The notes under the pieces were generated by a model. That model was not told the DNA's origin, searched no databases, and saw only the letters and a list, made by a program, of their open reading frames with translations. Made by a program: the position numbers and the translations under genes. Below, in pieces: positions 3,114 through 52,250 of a stretch of 64,000 nucleotides of DNA (within the stretch, counting starts at the first letter, position 1; each line of letters opens with the position of its first letter). Source of the DNA: a bacterium (GTDB taxonomy: Bacteria; Patescibacteriota; Minisyncoccia; UBA6257; UBA9933); contig JAJYWO010000002.1 of assembly GCA_021791445.1 (NCBI GenBank), positions 21,757 to 85,756 of the forward strand. The letters run 5' to 3'.

Positions 3114-3688
3114 AAAAAAATCTCAAATCTAAAATCTCAAATCTCAAATCTTCAGACGGCTTTACCTTAGTGGAGCTTATTATGGCAATGAGCATTTTTG
3201 TGATTTTGGTGTCAATCGCGGTTGGCGGATTTATCAACATTTTAAGGAATCAAAGACTAGCCATCGCTTTGATGTCCGTTAACGACAATATGAGTTTAAG
3301 CATGGAACAAATGGCGCGCGAAATAAGAACCGGATATAACTTTATCAAAATATCCGACGAGGAATTCCAATTTGTCAACGCAAATAACAGAATAGTTTGG
3401 TATAGGCTGAGCAAGGGCGCCATAGAAAGAGTCACGGAAAACGCGTCTTTGGAAAAGAATCCCCAAAAAATCACCGCTGACAACGTAAAAATAGTGAAAT
3501 TTAACGTGGGAATTTGCGGGAGAAATCTCGACCCGAATTTAATTCTTGATTCTTGCGGCATCGGAGGAAGCGCGTATCCGCCGAGAATCACTTTAAGTTT
3601 TACCATAACCAGCGCCGAACCGGATATTGAAAGATTGAAAATTTTTACCAATATTCAAACAACAATAAGTTCAAGAATATTGATATAA
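3110..3688 (+). CDS. Pseudopilin-like protein carrying an in-frame heptanucleotide repeat
   Basis: DGFTLVELIMAMSIFVIL prepilin motif. N-terminal NLKSKISNLKSS is encoded by (TCTCAAA)n at 3121-3151. Confidence 0.6.
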   Translation: MKKNLKSKISNLKSSDGFTLVELIMAMSIFVILVSIAVGGFINILRNQRLAIALMSVNDNMSLSMEQMAREIRTGYNFIKISDEEFQFVNANNRIVWYRLSKGAIERVTENASLEKNPQKITADNVKIVKFNVGICGRNLDPNLILDSCGIGGSAYPPRITLSFTITSAEPDIERLKIFTNIQTTISSRILI

Positions 3689-3689
3689 A

Positions 3690-5120
3690 ATGACGGCCAA
3701 TATTCCAAAAAATATCAGAGTGAGATTCGCGCCGAGTCCAACCGGCCCTCTTCATATTGGCAGCTGCCGCACGGCTTTGTTTAATTGGCTTTTTGCCAAA
3801 AATCAGGGCGGGGAATTCATTTTGCGCATTGAAAACACCGATGTTGAGCGTTCAAAAAAAGAATATGAAGACGGCATTGTTGAGGGTATGAAATGGCTCG
3901 GTTTGGATTGGGACGAGTTTTACCGCCAATCGGAACGGCTGGATATTTACGAAAAATATCTTAAACAGCTTTTAGACGAAGAAAAAGCGTATTATTGTTT
4001 TTGTTCCAAAGAAGAACTTGAAGCCGACCGGCAAGCGATGTTAAGCCAGGGGATTGCGCCGAAATACGGCGGCCGATGCAAAAAATTTTCAAAACAAGAA
4101 AGCGAAGAAAAAATAAATAAAGGAGAATCTGCCGTTATCCGTTTTAAGATGCCGTTAAAGGAAATTGAATTTCATGATATGATACGCGGCAAGGTGAAAT
4201 TCAACAGCGAGTTGATAGGGGATATAGTAATAGCGAAAAATCTGAAAGAACCGCTTTATAATTTCGGAGTCGTTGTTGACGACTATGAAATGAAAATCAG
4301 CCATATAATTCGCGGCGAAGACCATCTGGCCAATACGCCGAAACAAATCGCCATTCAGGAAGCGCTTGGATTTGAAAACGTGAAATATGCTCATTTGCCT
4401 TTAATTTTAACTCCGGACCGCCGCAAAATGTCCAAGCGTTATCTTGATGTCGCTTTGGAAGATTACCGGCAAAACGGCTATTTGGCTGAAGCGATCGTCA
4501 ATTTTACGGTATTTTTGGGTTGGCATCCAGTTGATGACAGGGAAATTCTTTCGCTTGAAGATTTAATCAAGGAATTTGACATAAAAAGGGTTCAAAAAGC
4601 CGGCGCGGTTTTTAATGTGGATAAGCTGGACTGGTTGAATTCGCAATACATTAAAAAGATGGACGCTTCGGAATTGGCTTTGAAGATTAAAAATTTTATT
4701 CCCTCGCAATGGCAATCTGACGAAGAATTGCTTATTAAAGCGATTGGAGCGGAAAAAGAAAGAATGAGAACGTTGGCGGAATTCAAAGATTTGGCAGGTT
4801 TCTTTTTTGAATTGCCAAATTACGAAAAAAATCTTTTAATATGGCGCGATGCGGCTCCGGAAAAAATTATTGAAAATTTGAAAATGATCGCCATGGAACT
4901 TGAAAAAATCGATGAAATGATGTTTAATAAAAAGGACTTGGAACAAATAATTATGCCGTTGACGGAAAAATACGGCGTTGGCGACTTGCTTTGGCCATTA
5001 AGAACCGCCTTAAGCGGCAAACAGGCGTCGCCCGGACCGTTTGAGATTTTGGAAGTTTTGGGCAAAAAAGAGTCGCTTAAACGGATTGAAATCGCGATAA
5101 ATAAATTGCAAAATAAATAA
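3690..5120 (+). CDS. gltX: Glutamyl-tRNA synthetase
   Basis: PSPTGPLHIG (HIGH) and KMSKR motifs. 476 aa. Confidence 0.9.
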   Translation: MTANIPKNIRVRFAPSPTGPLHIGSCRTALFNWLFAKNQGGEFILRIENTDVERSKKEYEDGIVEGMKWLGLDWDEFYRQSERLDIYEKYLKQLLDEEKAYYCFCSKEELEADRQAMLSQGIAPKYGGRCKKFSKQESEEKINKGESAVIRFKMPLKEIEFHDMIRGKVKFNSELIGDIVIAKNLKEPLYNFGVVVDDYEMKISHIIRGEDHLANTPKQIAIQEALGFENVKYAHLPLILTPDRRKMSKRYLDVALEDYRQNGYLAEAIVNFTVFLGWHPVDDREILSLEDLIKEFDIKRVQKAGAVFNVDKLDWLNSQYIKKMDASELALKIKNFIPSQWQSDEELLIKAIGAEKERMRTLAEFKDLAGFFFELPNYEKNLLIWRDAAPEKIIENLKMIAMELEKIDEMMFNKKDLEQIIMPLTEKYGVGDLLWPLRTALSGKQASPGPFEILEVLGKKESLKRIEIAINKLQNK

Positions 5121-5426: not shown

Positions 5427-6803
5427 ATGAAGAAAGCAATCCGCATACATTTTATAGGCATAGGAGGCATTGGAGTAAGCGCGTTAGCGCGCTATTTTTT
5501 GTCTGAAGGCCATAAAATCAGCGGTTCGGACGCTTCCCGTTCGGAAATCACAGACGAATTAAAGAAAGAAGGCATAAAGATCTTAATTGGCCACAAAGCG
5601 GCTAATATCTTCAAGAGTATCGATTTAATAATTCATAGCGCCGCTGTTAATAAAAATAACCCAGAAATTGGAGGGGCTGAAAAACTTGGCATTCCCCTGC
5701 AATCTTACAGTCAGGCGCTCGGCGAATTGACGAAACAGCATAAAACAATTGCCGTGGCCGGCACTTGCGGCAAAAGCACCACCACCGCCATGCTTTCGCT
5801 TGTTTTTGCAAAAGCCGGATTAGACCCAACCGTGATAATCGGCACCAAACTTAAAGAATTTGGCGAAAAAAATTTCAGGAAGGGCAAAAGCGATTATTTA
5901 ATAATAGAAGCGGACGAGCATTTCAAGTCTTTTTTGGATTACTCCCCTTTTGCGGCTATTATCACCAATATTGACCGCGATCATTTGGATTTTTATAAAA
6001 ATCTCAATAATTTAAAAAAATCTTTTCTGGACTTCATCGGGAATATTTGTTCAGGCGGCGTTTTAGTTGTTAATAAAGACGATAAAAATTTATTCGGTTT
6101 AAAAAATAAAATCCAAAAAATTGCCAAGAAAAATAAATTAAAAATTATCTGGTATGGCAAAGAGGAAAAATTAAAAAATATTTTAAAAATACCGGGCAAA
6201 CACAATGTTTCCAACGCAACAGCTGTTCTTGAAATGGCAAAAGCGGTCGGCGTAAAAGAAAAAGTCATTTTAAGAGCGTTAAGCGAATACCGCGGCGCCT
6301 GGCGCAGAATGGAATACCGTGGAAATCTCAAATCTCAAATCTCAAATCTCAAAATTTCGGTTTATGACGATTACGCTCATCACCCCTCCAAAATAAAAGC
6401 CGCTTTGGCGGGATTTCGCGAAAAATATCCGAAATCGCGAATTATTTGCGTTTTCCAACCGCATCAGTTACAGCGGTTAAAATATTTATTCAAGGAATTT
6501 TCCGAATCATTCAATGACGCAGATGATTTAATTTTATTGGATGTTTATAAAGTAAAAGGCCGCGATGAGTCTCCTTCTAAAATTAATTCTCAAAAACTGG
6601 CAGAAGCGATAAAGAGAAAGAAAAATTCATCAGAGGTTTTATATCTCAAATCCGCCGGCTGGCGGGAAAATAATCTCAAAAAAGAGATTGAGAATATTAT
6701 TCGCAATTCGCGGCATTCGCATACATTCGCGGATTCGTATCATGTAATAGTGATGATGGGCGCCGGAGACATTTATAAATTAACCGATAAATTAATTAAA
6801 TAA
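5427..6803 (+). CDS. murC: UDP-N-acetylmuramate--L-alanine ligase (MurC/Mpl family)
   Basis: IHFIGIGGIGVSALA..GSD N-terminus and AGTCGKSTTT P-loop. The ATG at 5427 is preferred over the GTG at 5418. Contains an in-frame (AATCTCA)4 repeat at 6324-6352. Confidence 0.8.
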   Translation: MKKAIRIHFIGIGGIGVSALARYFLSEGHKISGSDASRSEITDELKKEGIKILIGHKAANIFKSIDLIIHSAAVNKNNPEIGGAEKLGIPLQSYSQALGELTKQHKTIAVAGTCGKSTTTAMLSLVFAKAGLDPTVIIGTKLKEFGEKNFRKGKSDYLIIEADEHFKSFLDYSPFAAIITNIDRDHLDFYKNLNNLKKSFLDFIGNICSGGVLVVNKDDKNLFGLKNKIQKIAKKNKLKIIWYGKEEKLKNILKIPGKHNVSNATAVLEMAKAVGVKEKVILRALSEYRGAWRRMEYRGNLKSQISNLKISVYDDYAHHPSKIKAALAGFREKYPKSRIICVFQPHQLQRLKYLFKEFSESFNDADDLILLDVYKVKGRDESPSKINSQKLAEAIKRKKNSSEVLYLKSAGWRENNLKKEIENIIRNSRHSHTFADSYHVIVMMGAGDIYKLTDKLIK

Positions 6804-6818
6804 GTTAAAAATAAAAAA

Positions 6819-6846
6819 ACGAGCAGTTTAACGTTAAACTGCTCGT
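6819..6846. terminator. Bidirectional rho-independent terminator between murC and the nudix gene
   Basis: Hairpin acgagcagtttaacgttaaactgctcgt with A/T runs on both sides. Confidence 0.5.
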
Positions 6847-6859
6847 CGTATTTGAGATT

Positions 6860-7263: not shown

Positions 7264-7356
7264 TTAGTATATAAAAATACCGTATAAGATAATCCCCACT
7301 ACTATTAACGCTGGTAATAATGCGCTAATAATAGCCGTATATCTAAAACTTTTCAT
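7264..7356 (-). CDS. Unannotated 30-aa hydrophobic peptide (MKSFRYTAIISALLPALIVVGIILYGIFIY)
   Basis: My own translation. GGAGG RBS 6 nt upstream of the ATG. Its stop is followed immediately by the nudix RBS. Single predicted TM helix. Confidence 0.4.
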   Translation of the reverse strand: MKSFRYTAIISALLPALIVVGIILYGIFIY

Positions 7357-7383
7357 ATTTCCTCCAATTTTAAGAACATTTTT

Positions 7384-7434
7384 ATCTCAAAATGAGATAT
7401 TATAATATAAGCATATTTGATTTATTTTGTCAAT
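7384..7434 (-). promoter_or_regulatory. Sigma70-like promoter (TTGACA-N17-TTATAT, read on the minus strand) with palindrome ATCTCATTTTGAGAT at the predicted start site
   Basis: Hexamers read directly from the sequence. About 50 bp of this module is repeated at 8765-8817. Confidence 0.45.
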
Positions 7435-7471
7435 AGTTGCGCTTTGGCTTTTGAATTGATAAGATAAATTC

Positions 7472-8239
7472 GTGTATTATTCCAATTTAGAGGGTTTTAA
7501 AAAGCTTTCCGGCTATGAAATAGACGGCGTTTGGTATCCGCGCGTCACGAAAATCGTGGAAATCAAGGCTAAGCCGGCTTTATACAGATTTTACGCGGAA
7601 TTGAACAATTTTGCCGAAGGCGAGTCGATAAAGGAAAAATCCGCCAGCGAAGGCACTTTAATCCACGAGGCGGCGGAGAAAATTTTTATCGGCGAATCCC
7701 CTGTCATTGACCCGTCAATCGCGCCTTCCATTGAAGCGCTTGTTAATTTTATTGAGAAAAAGAATATTCAAGTTGACCCGGAATTTGTTGAAAAGCAAGT
7801 TGTCCATTACGGAGACCGTTACGCCGGCACATTGGATGCCGTGGCTTTAATTGACGGGAAATTGGGCATCTTAGACATTAAAACATCGCAAGCCATTTAT
7901 CGCGATTACAATCTTCAGACATCGGCTTACATAGCCGCTTTGCACAGCAGTTTGAATAATCTTCAGACGAGATGGATTTTAAGGATAGATCAAACCAAGA
8001 TTTGCTTGAAATGCGGCGCCGTGTTGCGTTCCAAGGGCGGGCGGGATAAAATCCGCGCGCCGAAAGTGAAAAACGGCGTCAATCACGAAAAATGCGAGCA
8101 TCGCTGGTCCGAGCTTCGCGGTGAAATAGAACTTAAAGAATTTCCCTATTGGCAGGAGGATTACAAGGCGTTTTTGGGAGCGAAAAAGTTATGGGAATGG
8201 GAAAATGAGTATTGGTTGAAGAAGGCGGGATATTTATAA
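7472..8239 (+). CDS. PD-(D/E)XK family nuclease with a C-terminal zinc ribbon
   Basis: GTLDAVALIDGKLGILDIKTSQAIYRDYNLQTSAY gives D..D-x-K and QxxxY motifs. C-terminal CLKCG...HEKCEH. Likely a GTG start. Confidence 0.6.
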   Translation: MYYSNLEGFKKLSGYEIDGVWYPRVTKIVEIKAKPALYRFYAELNNFAEGESIKEKSASEGTLIHEAAEKIFIGESPVIDPSIAPSIEALVNFIEKKNIQVDPEFVEKQVVHYGDRYAGTLDAVALIDGKLGILDIKTSQAIYRDYNLQTSAYIAALHSSLNNLQTRWILRIDQTKICLKCGAVLRSKGGRDKIRAPKVKNGVNHEKCEHRWSELRGEIELKEFPYWQEDYKAFLGAKKLWEWENEYWLKKAGYL

Positions 8240-8264
8240 GGAAAAATTTTATTTTCCCTCAACC

Positions 8265-8365
8265 CGCTTCGCTCGCCCCAGCGAGGCGAGCTCGCTTATT
8301 CCTCGGCTCGCTCCCCCGCCTGCGGCGGGGACCATGCCCGCTCGCCTGCGCAGGTTTCGGAGAAA
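8265..8365. repeat. GC-rich cluster of three hairpins (GCTCGCC/GGCGAGC, CCCCGCC-TGC-GGCGGGG, CCTGCGCAGG), REP-like
   Basis: Seen in the sequence. Strongly GC-rich against an AT-rich background. It generates the spurious ORF 8212..8484. Confidence 0.5.
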
Positions 8366-8454
8366 ACAAAATTTTTCCTTATAAATTTATTATTGTTATA
8401 AAAAAACAGCCCGGCAAGGTTTTTATCCTTGAACCGGGTCTTATTAAATTAATT

Positions 8455-8688
8455 TTACTTTTTTACAAGACGAAATGCTCTTAATTCTGGATTTGCCGTT
8501 TTCCAATCTCTTGCGTACTCAGCCCTAAGATCACTAATAAAAGGTATTATGTCTAGCGCTAAAAGATCAGTGCAGTAAATCTTGTGATTTTCGTTTGTGA
8601 ACCTTATAAAACCATTTTTCATCTGATAAAATTCCATTTTTTCATTTTTTTGATCATAAATAATCATATCTCCTTCTTTCAATTTCAT
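8455..8688 (-). CDS. Hypothetical protein (77 aa)
   Basis: ORF with an AGGAG RBS. Downstream of the second copy of the promoter-operator module. Confidence 0.5.
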   Translation of the reverse strand: MKLKEGDMIIYDQKNEKMEFYQMKNGFIRFTNENHKIYCTDLLALDIIPFISDLRAEYARDWKTANPELRAFRLVKK

Positions 8689-8724
8689 AAATTTTCTCCT
8701 TATATCCTTTCGTTTTTTATAAAG

Positions 8725-8817
8725 AACAAATATCTCTTAATGAGATGTTTATCTTAGGTTTTTAAACATCTCAAAATGAGATGTTATAATATAAGCATAT
8801 TTGACTTAATTTGTCAA
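8725..8817 (-). promoter_or_regulatory. Second copy of the TTGACA/TATAAT promoter, with two ATCTCA..TGAGAT palindromes
   Basis: AACATCTCAAAATGAGATGTT at 8765-8785 and ATCTCTTAATGAGAT at 8731-8745. Same 50-bp module as 7384-7434. Confidence 0.45.
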
Positions 8818-8979
8818 CTAAGAGCACTTTTCAATAATAATCGGGGCGCGGGTGAATTCGCGGTTTGCCAGATAGCCTAAACCGAAACTCAAAGTGGCGA
8901 CAACAATAATTAAAAACGCAATCATAATATCGCGTTGATTTTCTTTAAACCACTCCTTAAAAGAGTTTATAAAGTCCAT
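8818..8979 (-). CDS. Unannotated 53-aa small membrane protein (MDFINSFKEWFKENQRDIMIAFLIIVVATLSFGLGYLANREF...)
   Basis: My own translation. One TM helix. Its stop abuts the -35 box of the downstream promoter. Confidence 0.35.
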   Translation of the reverse strand: MDFINSFKEWFKENQRDIMIAFLIIVVATLSFGLGYLANREFTRAPIIIEKCS

Positions 8980-9772: not shown

Positions 9773-10048
9773 ATGGCGCATACTAAATCAGGAGGCTCTA
9801 CTAAGTTAGGCAGGGACTCCATATCAAAAAGACTTGGAATAAAGAGGCAAGAGGGGCAGGCGGTGAAAGCCGGCGAGGTTTTGATTCGCCAAAGAGGAAC
9901 CAGATATTTGCCGGGATTAAACGTTGCCCGAGCCGGAGACGATACTTTGTACGCCTTAAAAGACGGTGTGGTTAAGTTTTCCCAAAAGAAAAAGACGAAA
10001 TTCGACGGTAATCATCGTTATATTACGATGATAACGGTTCAGTCTTAA
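9773..10048 (+). CDS. rpmA: Ribosomal protein L27
   Basis: [21 protein letters not shown]27 signature. Confidence 0.9.
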
Positions 10049-28790: not shown

Positions 28791-28864
28791 TGTATAATTA
28801 TAAATATGTTTTCATAAAATATTTATTTTCGACCATTCGCTTTATAAACATTTATCTTATAAAA

Positions 28865-28902
28865 TATAACATTTTATCTACGATCGCAAATAAAATGTTA
28901 TA
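28865..28902. promoter_or_regulatory. 38-bp palindromic operator TATAACATTTTATCTACGATCGCAAATAAAATGTTATA, about 75 nt upstream of grpE
   Basis: Inverted repeat seen in the sequence. It belongs to the four-member family, with the others at 28990, 29688 and 45311. Confidence 0.5.
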
Positions 28903-28989
28903 TTTTAATAATAATATCTATTTTTAATAAATCAATAGTAAATTATATAGATAAAATATAGTTAATTCAATTTTAGAATAAAAATAAAA

Positions 28990-29027
28990 TATAACAAATT
29001 GTTTACGATCGTAAGTAATTTGTTATA
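28990..29027. promoter_or_regulatory. Second palindromic operator TATAACAAATTGTTTACGATCGTAAGTAATTTGTTATA
   Basis: Inverted repeat with a central TTACGATCGTAA. Lies between the regulator stop and grpE. Confidence 0.5.
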
Positions 29028-29038
29028 CAATATTAAAA

Positions 29039-29662
29039 TTATTCTTCAAAATTTTTAAATTTTTCAAATATTCCGTCATCATCTATTTCTCCAATAGTAA
29101 TCATTCTAATACATTGATAGAGATTTTTCCTTAAAATATCCTCATAAACATCTTCTTCAATGGGTCGCTTTCCCATAAAAACACTTCTCTGTATTGGTTG
29201 ATAATTTATTGACAATAATTGAAATCTTAACCAGTCGCGTTCTTTTCTTTTCTTCTCGGGGATATCAAACATCACCATTCTCCATTTACCGTCCCATGTT
29301 TCCCGCTCCGGTTTATTTTCTTTGTTCTTTAAAAAATCGATTATTTTCAAGCCGGCCGAAGTAATATGATATTTCCTGCCTTTTTTCGTTATCAATCCTT
29401 TTTGCTGAAGCCGCCACAGCGTTGTTCGCGCGCTGTTTTTTCTCATATTTTGCAGTTCGTCGTAATAATCCCAAAAATTCCCGAGATTTGCCATTTTGCC
29501 GTAGCTTCTTCCCAAACTATGTCCGCCGGTTTCCAAAATTTCCGAAAGCGCGGCTGTTCCCCTTTCCGCCAGTCCGAAAATCAGGGCCAAGCCGGCCATA
29601 CTGACATTAATCGGCAATTCTTCAACGGTTTTTTTTAGTTGTTTTTTATTTATGCCGGACAT
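29039..29662 (-). CDS. PaaX-like transcriptional regulator (N-terminal wHTH plus PaaX_C-like domain), in the position usually held by hrcA
   Basis: The wHTH region reads LGRSYGKMANLGNFWDYYDELQ...TTLWRLQQKGLI. The C-terminal WDGKWRMVMFDIPE..R..R..LR..L...QRSVFM matches the PaaX C-domain pattern. Confidence 0.55.
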   Translation of the reverse strand: MSGINKKQLKKTVEELPINVSMAGLALIFGLAERGTAALSEILETGGHSLGRSYGKMANLGNFWDYYDELQNMRKNSARTTLWRLQQKGLITKKGRKYHITSAGLKIIDFLKNKENKPERETWDGKWRMVMFDIPEKKRKERDWLRFQLLSINYQPIQRSVFMGKRPIEEDVYEDILRKNLYQCIRMITIGEIDDDGIFEKFKNFEE

Positions 29663-29687
29663 TTATTATTTTTTATTCCGCATTAAA

Positions 29688-29731
29688 AAGTATAACATCT
29701 TACTGCCGATCGGCAATGAAATGTTATACTT
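29688..29731. promoter_or_regulatory. Palindromic operator AAGTATAACATCTTACTGCCGATCGGCAATGAAATGTTATACTT, 26 nt upstream of the regulator gene and divergent from cysS
   Basis: Near-perfect 44-bp palindrome of the same family. Confidence 0.5.
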
Positions 29732-29803
29732 TTTGTATTTTATTAATATCCTTGGAGTTGTCAATAGTTGCGCATAAAGAGGAAATTTAATAGAATTAAC
29801 GCA

Positions 29804-45310: not shown

Positions 45311-45356
45311 AAAGTATAACATTTTGTTGTCGATCGACAACAAAATGTTATACTTT
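45311..45356. promoter_or_regulatory. 46-bp perfect palindrome AAAGTATAACATTTTGTTGTCGATCGACAACAAAATGTTATACTTT, 6 nt upstream of the rtcB ATG
   Basis: Same family as the grpE and regulator operators. No Shine-Dalgarno sequence lies between it and the ATG. Confidence 0.55.
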
Positions 45357-45378
45357 TCGCAATTTATAATTATTATTC

Positions 45379-50800: not shown

Positions 50801-52250
50801 TTTTTTCATACCACTGCCCTATTCCCAAAATATCCGCTTCGCGGAAGGGCTTACCGATTAACTGAAAGCCGACAGGTAGTCCGTTTGTTCGCGTTGGAAT
50901 GGAAATCGCCGGTAAACCCGCCAAATTCACGGGAATCGTGAAAATATCCTCCAAATACATCTGCAAGGGGTCGCTGGTTTTTTCGCCGATTTTGAAAGCC
51001 GGCGACGGCGAAACCGGAGTCAAAATCACATCAATATCCTGAAACGCCTTGTCAAAATCATTTTTTATCAATCTCCGCACTTTCTGCGCTTTGGAATAAT
51101 AAGCGTCGTAATAGCCGTGAGACAACACGAAAGTTCCCAAAATAATTCTCCGTTTCACTTCATCACCAAATCCCAACCCCCTTTGTTTCAAATAAATGTC
51201 CGAAAGATTTAAGATTTGAGATTTGAGATTTGAGATTTGACTATAACGGATGCCATCAAATCGCGCCAAATTTGCGCTCACTTCCGCCGGCATAATAATA
51301 TAATAAGAAGACAAGGCGTATTTCGTATGCGGCAGACTAATTTCCTTAAATTCAAAACCTTGCGATTTTAAAATATTTATCGTTTCCTGAACCGCTTTTT
51401 GGGTTTCTTTATCAAGACCCTTAATAAAATATTCTTTTGGCAATCCGATTTTCAATTTTTTGATTTTTTCAAAATCCGGATTCAATAATTCATCGCTATA
51501 TCTGCCAGTCGACGGATTAACGCTTGTGGAATCAAATTCGTCTTTCCCGCTGATTTCTTTGAATAAAATCGCCGCGTCTTCAACGGTTTTCGTTATGGGT
51601 CCGATTTGATCCAAACTGGACGCCATTGCCATCAATCCATAACGCGAAACCGCACCGTAAGTCGGCTTTAATCCGACCACACCGCAAAAATTGGCTGGCT
51701 GGCGGATTGAACCGCCGGTATCCGAACCCAAGGCCGCCACGCACATATTCGCGGCAACAGCGGCCGCCGAACCGCCGGAAGAACCGCCCGGCACTCTTTC
51801 CAAATCGCGGGGATTTCTCGTTTTCTGAAAAGCGGAATTCTCCGTTGACGAACCCATGGCAAATTCATCCATATTGGTCTTTCCTAAAAATATCGCGTCG
51901 GATTTTTTTAATTTTTTAATGACTGTGGCGTCATAACTCGCTTTGTAATTTTCCAAAATTTTTGAAGCCGAAGTCGTTATTTCCCCGTTTATTAAAATAT
52001 TGTCTTTAATCGCCAGAGGAACGGCGCCAAGAACGCCTATTTTGCCGCTACTGTTTAATTCGGCGTCAACAATATTCGCTTTCGCCAAAGCCGCGTCTTC
52101 GCTTGTTCGCAAATACGCGCCGATTTCTTTATCCCGCGATTTTATCAAATCAAAAACCGCTTTCGTAATTTCAAGAGCGGAAAATTTTCTATCAACCAAC
52201 CCCTGATGAAATTTTTTAATGGTTAAATTTTTTAAATCCATTTTATTCAA
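50796..52250 (-). CDS. gatA: Glutamyl-tRNA(Gln) amidotransferase subunit A
   Basis: Amidase signature GGSSGGSAAAVA and GGSIRQPA. In-frame (GATTTGA)4 repeat at 51209-51241. Confidence 0.9.
   Translation of the reverse strand: MNKMDLKNLTIKKFHQGLVDRKFSALEITKAVFDLIKSRDKEIGAYLRTSEDAALAKANIVDAELNSSGKIGVLGAVPLAIKDNILINGEITTSASKILENYKASYDATVIKKLKKSDAIFLGKTNMDEFAMGSSTENSAFQKTRNPRDLERVPGGSSGGSAAAVAANMCVAALGSDTGGSIRQPANFCGVVGLKPTYGAVSRYGLMAMASSLDQIGPITKTVEDAAILFKEISGKDEFDSTSVNPSTGRYSDELLNPDFEKIKKLKIGLPKEYFIKGLDKETQKAVQETINILKSQGFEFKEISLPHTKYALSSYYIIMPAEVSANLARFDGIRYSQISNLKSQILNLSDIYLKQRGLGFGDEVKRRIILGTFVLSHGYYDAYYSKAQKVRRLIKNDFDKAFQDIDVILTPVSPSPAFKIGEKTSDPLQMYLEDIFTIPVNLAGLPAISIPTRTNGLPVGFQLIGKPFREADILGIGQWYEKI

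Follow-up and report, generated by a model that had tools for sequence, protein, structure and literature searches.

The analysed stretch of 64 kb (hereafter, the window) comes from a Candidatus Wolfebacteria (CPR) bacterium and contains two copies of a ~50-nt block. This block is best regarded as a promoter particular to the lineage together with a structured 5′ leader, which is a candidate for a new RNA motif and stands at the head of a hypervariable slot for accessory genes. In the reading that we favour, with little more than even confidence, each copy comprises a sigma-70-type promoter and a transcribed 5′ leader in which the palindromes form the arms of RNA stem-loops. The first stem-loop would start at or within a few bases of the predicted transcription start, and in copy 2 a second, longer stem-loop would come after it; the unit as a whole would be a conserved Wolfebacteria piece that expresses whichever accessory gene fills the slot. 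It provides a concrete, testable cis-element, a marker of a hypervariable accessory-gene slot and an RNA motif candidate suitable for curation. [quoted passage not shown]

The two copies of the 50-nt block lie on the minus strand (7433->7384, copy 1; 8817->8768, copy 2) and are identical at 47 of 50 positions, and the 21-mer core of the block occurs exactly twice in the window against 0.01 occurrences expected, which bears out the earlier note, where a duplicated block of about 50 bp had been described. In order, the block consists of TTGACA, an 18-nt spacer ending in TGCT, TATATT, ATAA(T/C) and ATCTCATTTTGAGAT, and the similarity between the copies breaks off at both of its edges. The repeat nevertheless extends past the block, as ATGTTCTTAAAA after the single hairpin of copy 1 matches TTTGTTCTTTATAAAA after the second hairpin of copy 2. 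The pattern ATCTC-N5-GAGAT is found in the window at three sites (7384, 8732 and 8768; 0.07 expected, with none of 100 shuffles reaching three), all of them within the two promoter modules, and even with up to two mismatches allowed just two extra weak sites appear, at 3712 and 44068. The second copy does carry two ATCTCA..TGAGAT palindromes (sites 8732 and 8768), as had been claimed, and the ORFs for the 30-aa peptide, the Nudix hydrolase and the 77-aa and 53-aa proteins are present where they had been placed (Table 1).

The earlier note also pointed to a resemblance between the half-site and an STR unit. This likeness to AAATCTC appears to be a coincidence, and kinship between the two was rejected: the arrays are intragenic, on the coding strand, and the ATCTCA hexamer (38 seen in the window versus 21 expected) is not enriched there once the AAATCTC arrays and the three palindromes, which account for 15 of the 38, are set aside. 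The (AAATCTC)4-5 arrays themselves (3118-3151, 6323-6353 and 51205-51240) lie inside ORFs on the coding strand each time, namely in the N-terminus of a pilin-like protein, in murC and in a 484-aa ORF, where they encode KSQISNL-like inserts. About 15 further heptamer repeats with differing units are dispersed across the window.

Table 1. Features of the two promoter-leader units and of the surrounding slot (positions in the window)
Feature	Position	Strand	Details
Terminator-like hairpin 3′ of the Nudix gene	6818..6847	minus	Between the Nudix gene and convergent murC
Nudix hydrolase, 130 aa	6860..7252	minus	Pfam NUDIX E = 9e-17; MutT-like similarity weak
30-aa hydrophobic peptide ORF	7264..7356	minus	First gene of copy 1
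Rest of leader 1	7357..7382	minus	AAAAATGTTCTTAAAATTGGAGGAAAT; holds TGTTCTT element and ribosome-binding site
Hairpin of copy 1	7383..7399	minus	TATCTCA-TTT-TGAGATA, 7 bp; dG -5.8 kcal/mol
Promoter P1 (copy of P2)	7404..7433	minus	-35 7433->7428; -10 TATATT 7409->7404
15-nt copy of murC 3′ end	7453..7467	plus	Cf. 6789-6803; just before 255-aa start codon
255-aa PD-(D/E)XK (Cas4/RecB-like) core gene	7472..8239	plus	Between the two copies
Terminator-like hairpin 3′ of the 77-aa ORF	8400..8441	minus	CCCGGTTCAAGG..CCTTGCCGGG and T run
77-aa ORFan, cargo of copy 2	8455..8688	minus	AAGGAG ribosome-binding site
Hairpin 2 of copy 2	8722..8755	minus	AAGAUAAACAUCUC-AUUAA-GAGAUAUUUGUUCUU; covariation count, covariance model, folds
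Hairpin 1 of copy 2	8766..8784	minus	ACATCTCA-TTT-TGAGATGT, 8-bp arms; dG -9.4 kcal/mol
Promoter P2	8788..8817	minus	-35 TTGACA 8817->8812; 18-nt spacer with TG; -10 TATATT 8793->8788
53-aa membrane peptide gene	8818..8979	minus	Conserved; upstream edge of slot

Comparison with relatives supports the block as a sigma-70-type promoter directed to the minus strand, its activity being predicted from sequence. In both copies TTGACA-N18-TATATT scores 11 of 12 matches in the promoter scan. The earlier note had read the element as TTGACA-N17-TTATAT/TATAAT. Its call of a minus-strand promoter of the sigma-70 type is supported, with a correction to the -10: the perfect TATAAT stands 23 nt away from the -35 and cannot pair with TTGACA, and the best -10 is TATATT at 18 nt, with TTATAT at 17 nt as an alternative partner. 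Transcription is predicted to start ~6-7 nt 3′ of TATATT; maps of transcription starts in Patescibacteria were sought in the literature and none was found. Among 14 family members the -35 TTGACA is invariant, and in most of them TG precedes a -10 of the form TAnnnT. The spacer drifts in sequence and keeps its length, which is 17 nt across the family and 18 nt in the window, the variant strain L010 and L020. Hexamers 17 ± 1 nt apart, conserved across relatives together with the length of the spacer, are what is expected of such a promoter, and an invariant TTGACA combined with fixed spacer length and drifting spacer sequence is the pattern of one that works. P2 begins directly 3′ of the stop codon of the 53-aa gene, the ancestral slot position, and promoters of the P2 type stand at the matching place in L020, L027, L029 and L042.

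The assignment of genes to the two copies in the earlier note is supported: copy 1 heads the genes for the 30-aa peptide and the Nudix hydrolase, copy 2 heads that for the 77-aa ORFan, and each unit ends in a terminator-like hairpin. Every NCBIfam match of the 130-aa Nudix protein falls under its cut-off. An analogous 55-aa hydrophobic ORF is found upstream of the Nudix gene in L024/L098. The 77-aa ORFan has two representatives among 5.8 billion proteins, itself and an 81% identical version from the variant strain, and is without a Pfam or NCBIfam match; its AlphaFold model is weak (pLDDT 60.6) and yields no fold match. A role of this protein as an autoregulator was rejected on the single homologue, the missing family match and the weak model without a fold match. 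The hairpin that follows its gene is a member of a terminator family closing the slot in relatives, with homologues in L013, L020, L038, L092 and L093. As for the small co-regulated set that had been proposed, the shared cis-element suggests that the units under it are handled in common; a repressor and operator as its basis are not supported, for the reasons given below.

The surroundings of the two copies can be understood from the gene order in relatives, for which 80 GTDB loci around the 255-aa PD-(D/E)XK gene were taken for comparison. The 255-aa protein has 2,252 homologues, the named ones coming from Candidatus Wolfebacteria and Patescibacteria. In relatives, a PolB-exo-like gene is followed by the 53-aa gene, a variable stretch and the convergent 255-aa gene, which begins 4-6 nt after murC. 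The 53-aa membrane peptide ORF is, to judge from its conservation, a real gene: its motif GLGYLxNRE...IIEKC (FGLGYLxNREFxxAPIIIEKC) gives 38 matches across the 81 sources scanned, it sits downstream of the PolB-exo-like gene in every neighbourhood examined, and its differences in L010 are mostly synonymous-looking. The variable stretch, that is, the slot, is empty in several species and in others holds a TrmB-like regulator with a 95-aa ORF, a large membrane protein, MurA, a 153-aa ORFan or a Nudix gene. None of the eight cargo proteins tested (71-190 aa; from L020, L027, L029, L038, L042, L092 and L101) has a Pfam domain, and the cargo proteins of the window and L038 show no homology to each other; the slot seems to collect lineage-specific ORFans.

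The block came to be present twice, as far as synteny can tell, when a Nudix cassette moved across the neighbouring 255-aa gene. Of the seven contexts in which the closest Nudix orthologues (54-76% identity) occur, six are the slot itself, bounded by the 53-aa gene and the 3′ end of the 255-aa gene; L094/L095 is the exception. In the window genome the Nudix unit is instead bordered by murC and the 255-aa gene, on the opposite side of the latter, and the slot is occupied by the 77-aa ORF. L011 and L106, the nearest of the relatives sampled, whose 255-aa protein is 97% identical, have neither the Nudix unit nor slot cargo. The change of synteny itself is real; one copy would have stayed at the ancestral place, where it would now drive the 77-aa ORFan, and the other would have travelled with the small peptide gene and the Nudix gene to the place between murC and the PD-(D/E)XK gene. 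No single-step path for this rearrangement could be reconstructed. A short duplication flanks the Nudix cassette, as 15 nt of the murC 3′ end recur before the 255-aa gene; the murC-end copies on the two sides of the cassette resemble a target duplication. In the window the 255-aa gene has a GTG start, versus ATG in relatives, and its operon link to murC is lost; a divergent TATAAT at 7401-7406 is one candidate promoter for it.

The palindrome does not recur near the PD-(D/E)XK gene in the 80 GTDB loci. A single ATCTC-N5-GAGAT, ~4 kb upstream in L038, led to a family of promoters with 5′ leaders. When the loci taken for comparison were searched by pattern, homologous units of this family came to light in at least nine related genomes. 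Their usual position is directly after the 53-aa gene and ahead of variable cargo, either a Nudix gene or unrelated ORFans. L010, a variant strain of the window, carries the unit. L020 has it in the same slot, with a promoter almost identical to that of the window and a 153-aa cargo; in L024/L098 the cargo is the 55-aa hydrophobic ORF and a Nudix gene, in L101 a 102-aa ORF and a Nudix gene, and in L092, L093, L096 and L097 a Nudix gene. The unit is also present in L027, L029 and L042 (two units in the latter), whereas in L038 it is placed after murG and has a 92-aa cargo. L046 may be a further family member. The palindrome, for which a search beside -10 boxes had been recommended, recurs in homologous promoter-leader units, with its arms spaced by 3 to 35 nt. 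No Rfam 15 family matches the leaders at E <= 1; the matches that appear are at chance level (E 0.45-0.8), with none on the leaders. A phage origin was rejected as well, the sole IMG/VR match to the 21-mer lying in AT-rich DNA without a common flank and being probably due to chance. None of 99 IMG/VR matches to the leader 3′ arm has a covariance-model score above 26 bits, and BLAST of the module against phage records returned chance matches only. Two hits of a metagenome scan, L104 and L105, lack promoter context and were set aside as apparent chance matches.

The predicted hairpins are conserved, with covariation. In copy 2, hairpin 1 opens 3-4 nt beyond the -10, which puts it at the predicted +1 or close to it. 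The second palindrome of this copy (8732-8746) turned out to be the tip of hairpin 2, a stem of 14-15 bp, the 3′ arm of which is a family-wide TTTGTTCTTT element. In family members the palindrome starts 3-5 nt after the -10 (~9 nt in L092, L093 and L097), and in L096 and the first L042 unit (L042a) it is degenerate only. ATCTC and GAGAT are separated by 5 nt in the window, in L010 and in hairpin 1 of L038, by 3 nt in L101, by 4 nt in the second L042 unit (L042b) and by 7 nt in L020, where A-T is replaced by G-C on both arms; the separation reaches 27 nt in hairpin 2 of L038, in which 23 inserted nucleotides form a hairpin of their own, and 35 nt in L024. L038 and L029 contain U·G pairs that are workable on the sense strand only. 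In L092, L093 and L097 the promoter and the downstream flank TTTAAAAAC are kept and TTTGAAAA-TAGT-TTTTCAAA replaces the ATCTC arms, with an A-to-G change in L097 that still permits a G·U pair. Leader hairpins across the genomes can be divided into a CAUCUC type and a UUUGAAAA type. Variants of hairpin 1 are seen in L020, L038, L029 and L097, and a bulged A is conserved in it in L024, L101 and L029. The UCUC/GAGA core is invariant in ~10 hairpins from seven genomes, and between L010 and the window the half-sites are unchanged and the spacer and flanks changed.

As MAFFT misplaced the 3′ arms of first hairpins when loop length differs, these were tallied by folding each. For hairpin 2, an alignment of the window, L010, L038, L024 and L027, with 15 pairs counted, has 89% of cells paired, a share that falls to 42-60% on sliding the partner by 1-3 columns. 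Both sides are changed in four pairs, a number reached by 2 of 500 shuffles, and six cells are G·U; the count is from five sequences, which also supplied the structure itself. The covariance model built from them recovers, in 1.29 Mb, all five training sequences and one new instance, in L029 (E = 1e-3), its match in the window spanning 8712-8760. The L029 match and four of the training matches fall within the slot that follows the 53-aa gene; the unit of L038 comes after murG. Sense-strand folding is better than antisense folding for seven hairpins with G·U pairs; hairpin 2 of the window, which clearly folds better antisense, is an exception to this. Whole leaders fold much better than shuffles, the z-scores being -4.4 for the 99-nt leader of copy 2 and between -3.5 and -5.6 for four other leaders with two hairpins. 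Pairing is thus kept by compensatory and wobble changes, as expected of an RNA stem-loop, in what is a small sample. A dimeric HTH repressor is not expected to tolerate varying spacing and a stem-loop is, hence our reading of the palindromes as hairpin arms. By the same token, the ATCTCA-N3-TGAGAT operator of the earlier note is not supported: the arms are spaced by 3, 4, 5, 7, 27 or 35 nt, and the second site is the tip of a covarying stem.

The strongest alternative nonetheless treats the palindrome as a DNA operator overlapping +1, through which a dimeric repressor would co-repress both units, the extra site of copy 2 adding cooperativity or a roadblock. We consider it unlikely. The palindromes do overlap the core promoter or +1, a usual site of repressor action, and the half-sites are common to the three sites of the window; that these half-sites are unchanged in the variant strain and that the core is invariant across species would also suit a protein-binding site. 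Moreover, the outermost pairs of hairpin 1 may sit upstream of the transcription start. A parallel comes from L102, likewise a hit of the metagenome scan, which has an identical 15-mer, ATCTCATTAAGAGAT, just after the -10 of a 69-aa HTH_3 cro-like gene and two related sites upstream of it, beside a divergent gene for a 113-aa RstR-like repressor. As this looks like a three-site array of Cro/CI-type operators, the sequence could serve as an HTH operator. Cro/CI (Xre, HTH_3) operators such as those of the RstR-type switch in L102 share with our units a 15-bp inverted repeat just after the -10 and more than one site per promoter; they differ in that here the window has no related HTH_3 protein, the spacing of the half-sites is not fixed and the arms covary.

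L102 has the look of an inovirus-like element of the Firmicutes type, without relation to Wolfebacteria, and the only phage-database matches of its repressor gene are Cro/CI genes of Listeria phages. The element is 5.7 kb long and encodes a G2P-type Rep besides the divergent RstR-like and Cro-like HTH_3 proteins. Three ATCTCA-N3-(A/T)G(A/C)G(A/T)T sites lie in its 140-nt intergenic region (620-760), which looks like a compact genetic switch.

Comparative observations weigh against an operator in our units. Among homologous units the half-sites are 3 to 35 nt apart rather than at a fixed distance, their arms change symmetrically or by G·U-compatible substitutions, and the clade of L092, L093 and L097 has a wholly different palindrome at the corresponding place. 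The second site of copy 2, besides being the tip of a 14-15 bp covarying stem, is 36 bp from the first, or ~3.4 helical turns, so that the two would face different sides of the DNA. The ORFs scanned did not offer a candidate repressor either. The 77-aa ORFan has no DNA-binding signature, and neither the locus nor the remaining scanned ORFs of the 64-kb window, itself a part of the genome, gave a cognate DNA-binding protein. A repressor encoded in the window was rejected: there is no relative of the L102 HTH proteins, and a Pfam scan of ten small or unassigned ORFs gave a single winged-helix protein, PaaX-like, which stands among different palindromes of its own. The ATCTCA..TGAGAT-binding repressor that the earlier note had invoked is therefore not supported by the spacing, by the compensatory arm changes or by the genes of the locus and the window ORFs scanned. 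The case teaches that a palindrome at +1 is not to be called an operator without comparative data.

Two further observations count against the reading as transcribed stem-loops or call for an addition to it. A start 7 nt after the -10 would leave the outermost 2-3 pairs of hairpin 1 untranscribed; these outer pairs covary all the same, which a constraint at the DNA level would fit better. Furthermore, the UCUC/GAGA core is conserved beyond structural need, which implies a sequence-specific partner, possibly a DNA-binding protein. The conserved stem sequence thus suggests an additional sequence-specific partner.

With the palindromes taken as stem-loops of a transcribed leader, their likeliest role would be that of a 5′-terminal structure shielding the mRNA from 5′-end-dependent decay. 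In well-studied bacteria, mRNAs are stabilised by such 5′ stem-loops, and RppH requires at least two unpaired 5′ nucleotides (PMC3997798). The first hairpin, at the 5′ end of the mRNA, would leave few or no unpaired nucleotides. Known 5′-terminal stabilisers, namely the leaders of E. coli ompA and papA and of B. subtilis ermC and aprE, are similar in that a simple hairpin comes directly after a strong promoter, no more than a few bases from the 5′ end of the mRNA (the start being predicted in our case), and is followed by an A/U-rich unstructured stretch and the ribosome-binding site, and in that pairing is conserved above loop sequence. Unlike them, many of the units described here have a second, longer stem-loop, and the UCUC/GAGA core is kept across species, whereas the stabilisers need no conserved stem sequence. 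The cis-regulatory families of Rfam 15 offer another parallel, that of a lineage-restricted covarying 5′-UTR structure upstream of varied genes; the leader consists of two plain hairpins without conserved junctions or loops and so does not resemble a riboswitch. The hairpins may also be the binding site of a putative hairpin-binding protein or parts of a conformational switch.

The first of these options can be extended to a Wolfebacteria portable expression frame, made up of promoter, two-hairpin CAUCUC/GAGAUG leader and terminator, in which cargo would be swapped by recombination and the hairpins would be the site of a putative lineage-specific hairpin-binding regulator. We regard this extended proposal as quite unlikely. 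If it were true, cargo genes scattered over the genome would constitute one post-transcriptional regulon, and the leader would be both a new class of RNA motif and a rare handle on gene regulation in CPR.

The second option, a riboregulatory switch or attenuator formed by the two hairpins of copy 2, in which a freed U-rich 3′ arm could function as a U-tract or base-pair to the ribosome-binding site, is in our estimate very unlikely. The arms of the two hairpins are alike, and the 3′ arm of hairpin 1 can consequently pair with the 5′ arm of hairpin 2. Indeed, the fold with the resulting 11-bp helix UGAGAUGUUUA/UAAACAUCUCA has the lowest energy both for the window and for L038; in the window this fold frees UUCUUUAUA to pair with UAUAAGGAG, and the U-rich segment can pair with the ribosome-binding site. 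Moreover, the base beside the core covaries between these two arms, U-A in the window and C-G in L038. Alternative folds of this kind are, however, produced without any function by tandem duplication of any hairpin, and L010 and L029 prefer the two-hairpin fold. Copy 1, L020 and L101 have a single hairpin and hence cannot switch in this manner. A sensor is not evident, there being no leader peptide and no conserved loops or junctions, and the terminator scan did not flag the leader hairpin of copy 2.

That the hairpins are DNA-level recombination or mobility signals bounding exchangeable cassettes, with the duplication reflecting cassette movement and not regulation, is highly improbable: although slot cargo differs between species within a conserved promoter-leader and terminator, the similarity of the window copies breaks off at the hairpin end, the Nudix cassette is flanked by the murC-end duplication and hairpin 1 has its conserved bulged A in L024, L101 and L029, the hairpins keep a fixed relation to promoter and ribosome-binding site throughout, a non-exhaustive look at the window ORFs and slots examined showed no evident integrase or transposase, and conserved flanks together with natural transformation would suffice for cargo to be swapped, with no need of a dedicated site. 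Genes of the ComEC type (PF03772 Competence) and DprA type (PF02481) are found nearby in the genome. The slot resembles replacement islands, variable slots exchanged by homologous recombination, in its fixed position, conserved flanks and unrelated cargo in each species; it differs from them in that the conserved flanks are an expression frame of promoter, leader and terminator. Integron cassettes are a looser analogy, as attC sites lie at cassette 3′ ends, whereas the hairpins here are 5′, beside the promoter, and no integrase or attC-like system was seen.

Several other palindromes and inserts are present in the window and its relatives. Four palindromes of ~46 nt with a CGATCG centre (TATAACATTTT..CGATCG..AAAATGTTATA) are located at 28861-28923, 28986-29048, 29687-29749 and 45311-45373. 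Two of them directly follow promoter-like sites on the minus strand (29764 and 29067), and such palindromes flank the gene of the PaaX-like winged-helix protein (29039-29662), which has apparent grpE-dnaK-dnaJ ORFs beside it; the fourth has an RtcB-like ORF downstream of it and an archease gene (Pfam) nearby. A palindrome of the same type follows the 53-aa gene in L011, L012, L024, L026, L043, L045 and L078. The CGATCG palindromes may represent a separate regulon, a terminator or a REP-like element.

A GC-rich palindrome, TCCGCCGGCTGGCGGA, occurs in 11 copies, at 6651-6666 and ten other places (e.g. 22577, 24172, 54385 and 55516). One copy is inside the murC frame, where it is read as SAGWR; murC of relatives carries short inserts too, different ones and at varying positions, which recall in-frame palindromic elements. 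Directly 3′ of the 255-aa gene lies a GC-rich insert of 150 nt (8240-8390) with a 23-nt inverted repeat (TTATAAGGAAAAATTTTATTTTC / GAAAACAAAATTTTTCCTTATAA) on its two sides; neither L011 nor L012 contains this insert, and it has no Rfam match. In L011, the closest GTDB relative, a palindromic insert, CCACCACACC...GGTGTGGTGG, flanked by TTTAC, is found at the 3′ end of murC (9905-9965), where it alters the predicted C-terminus.
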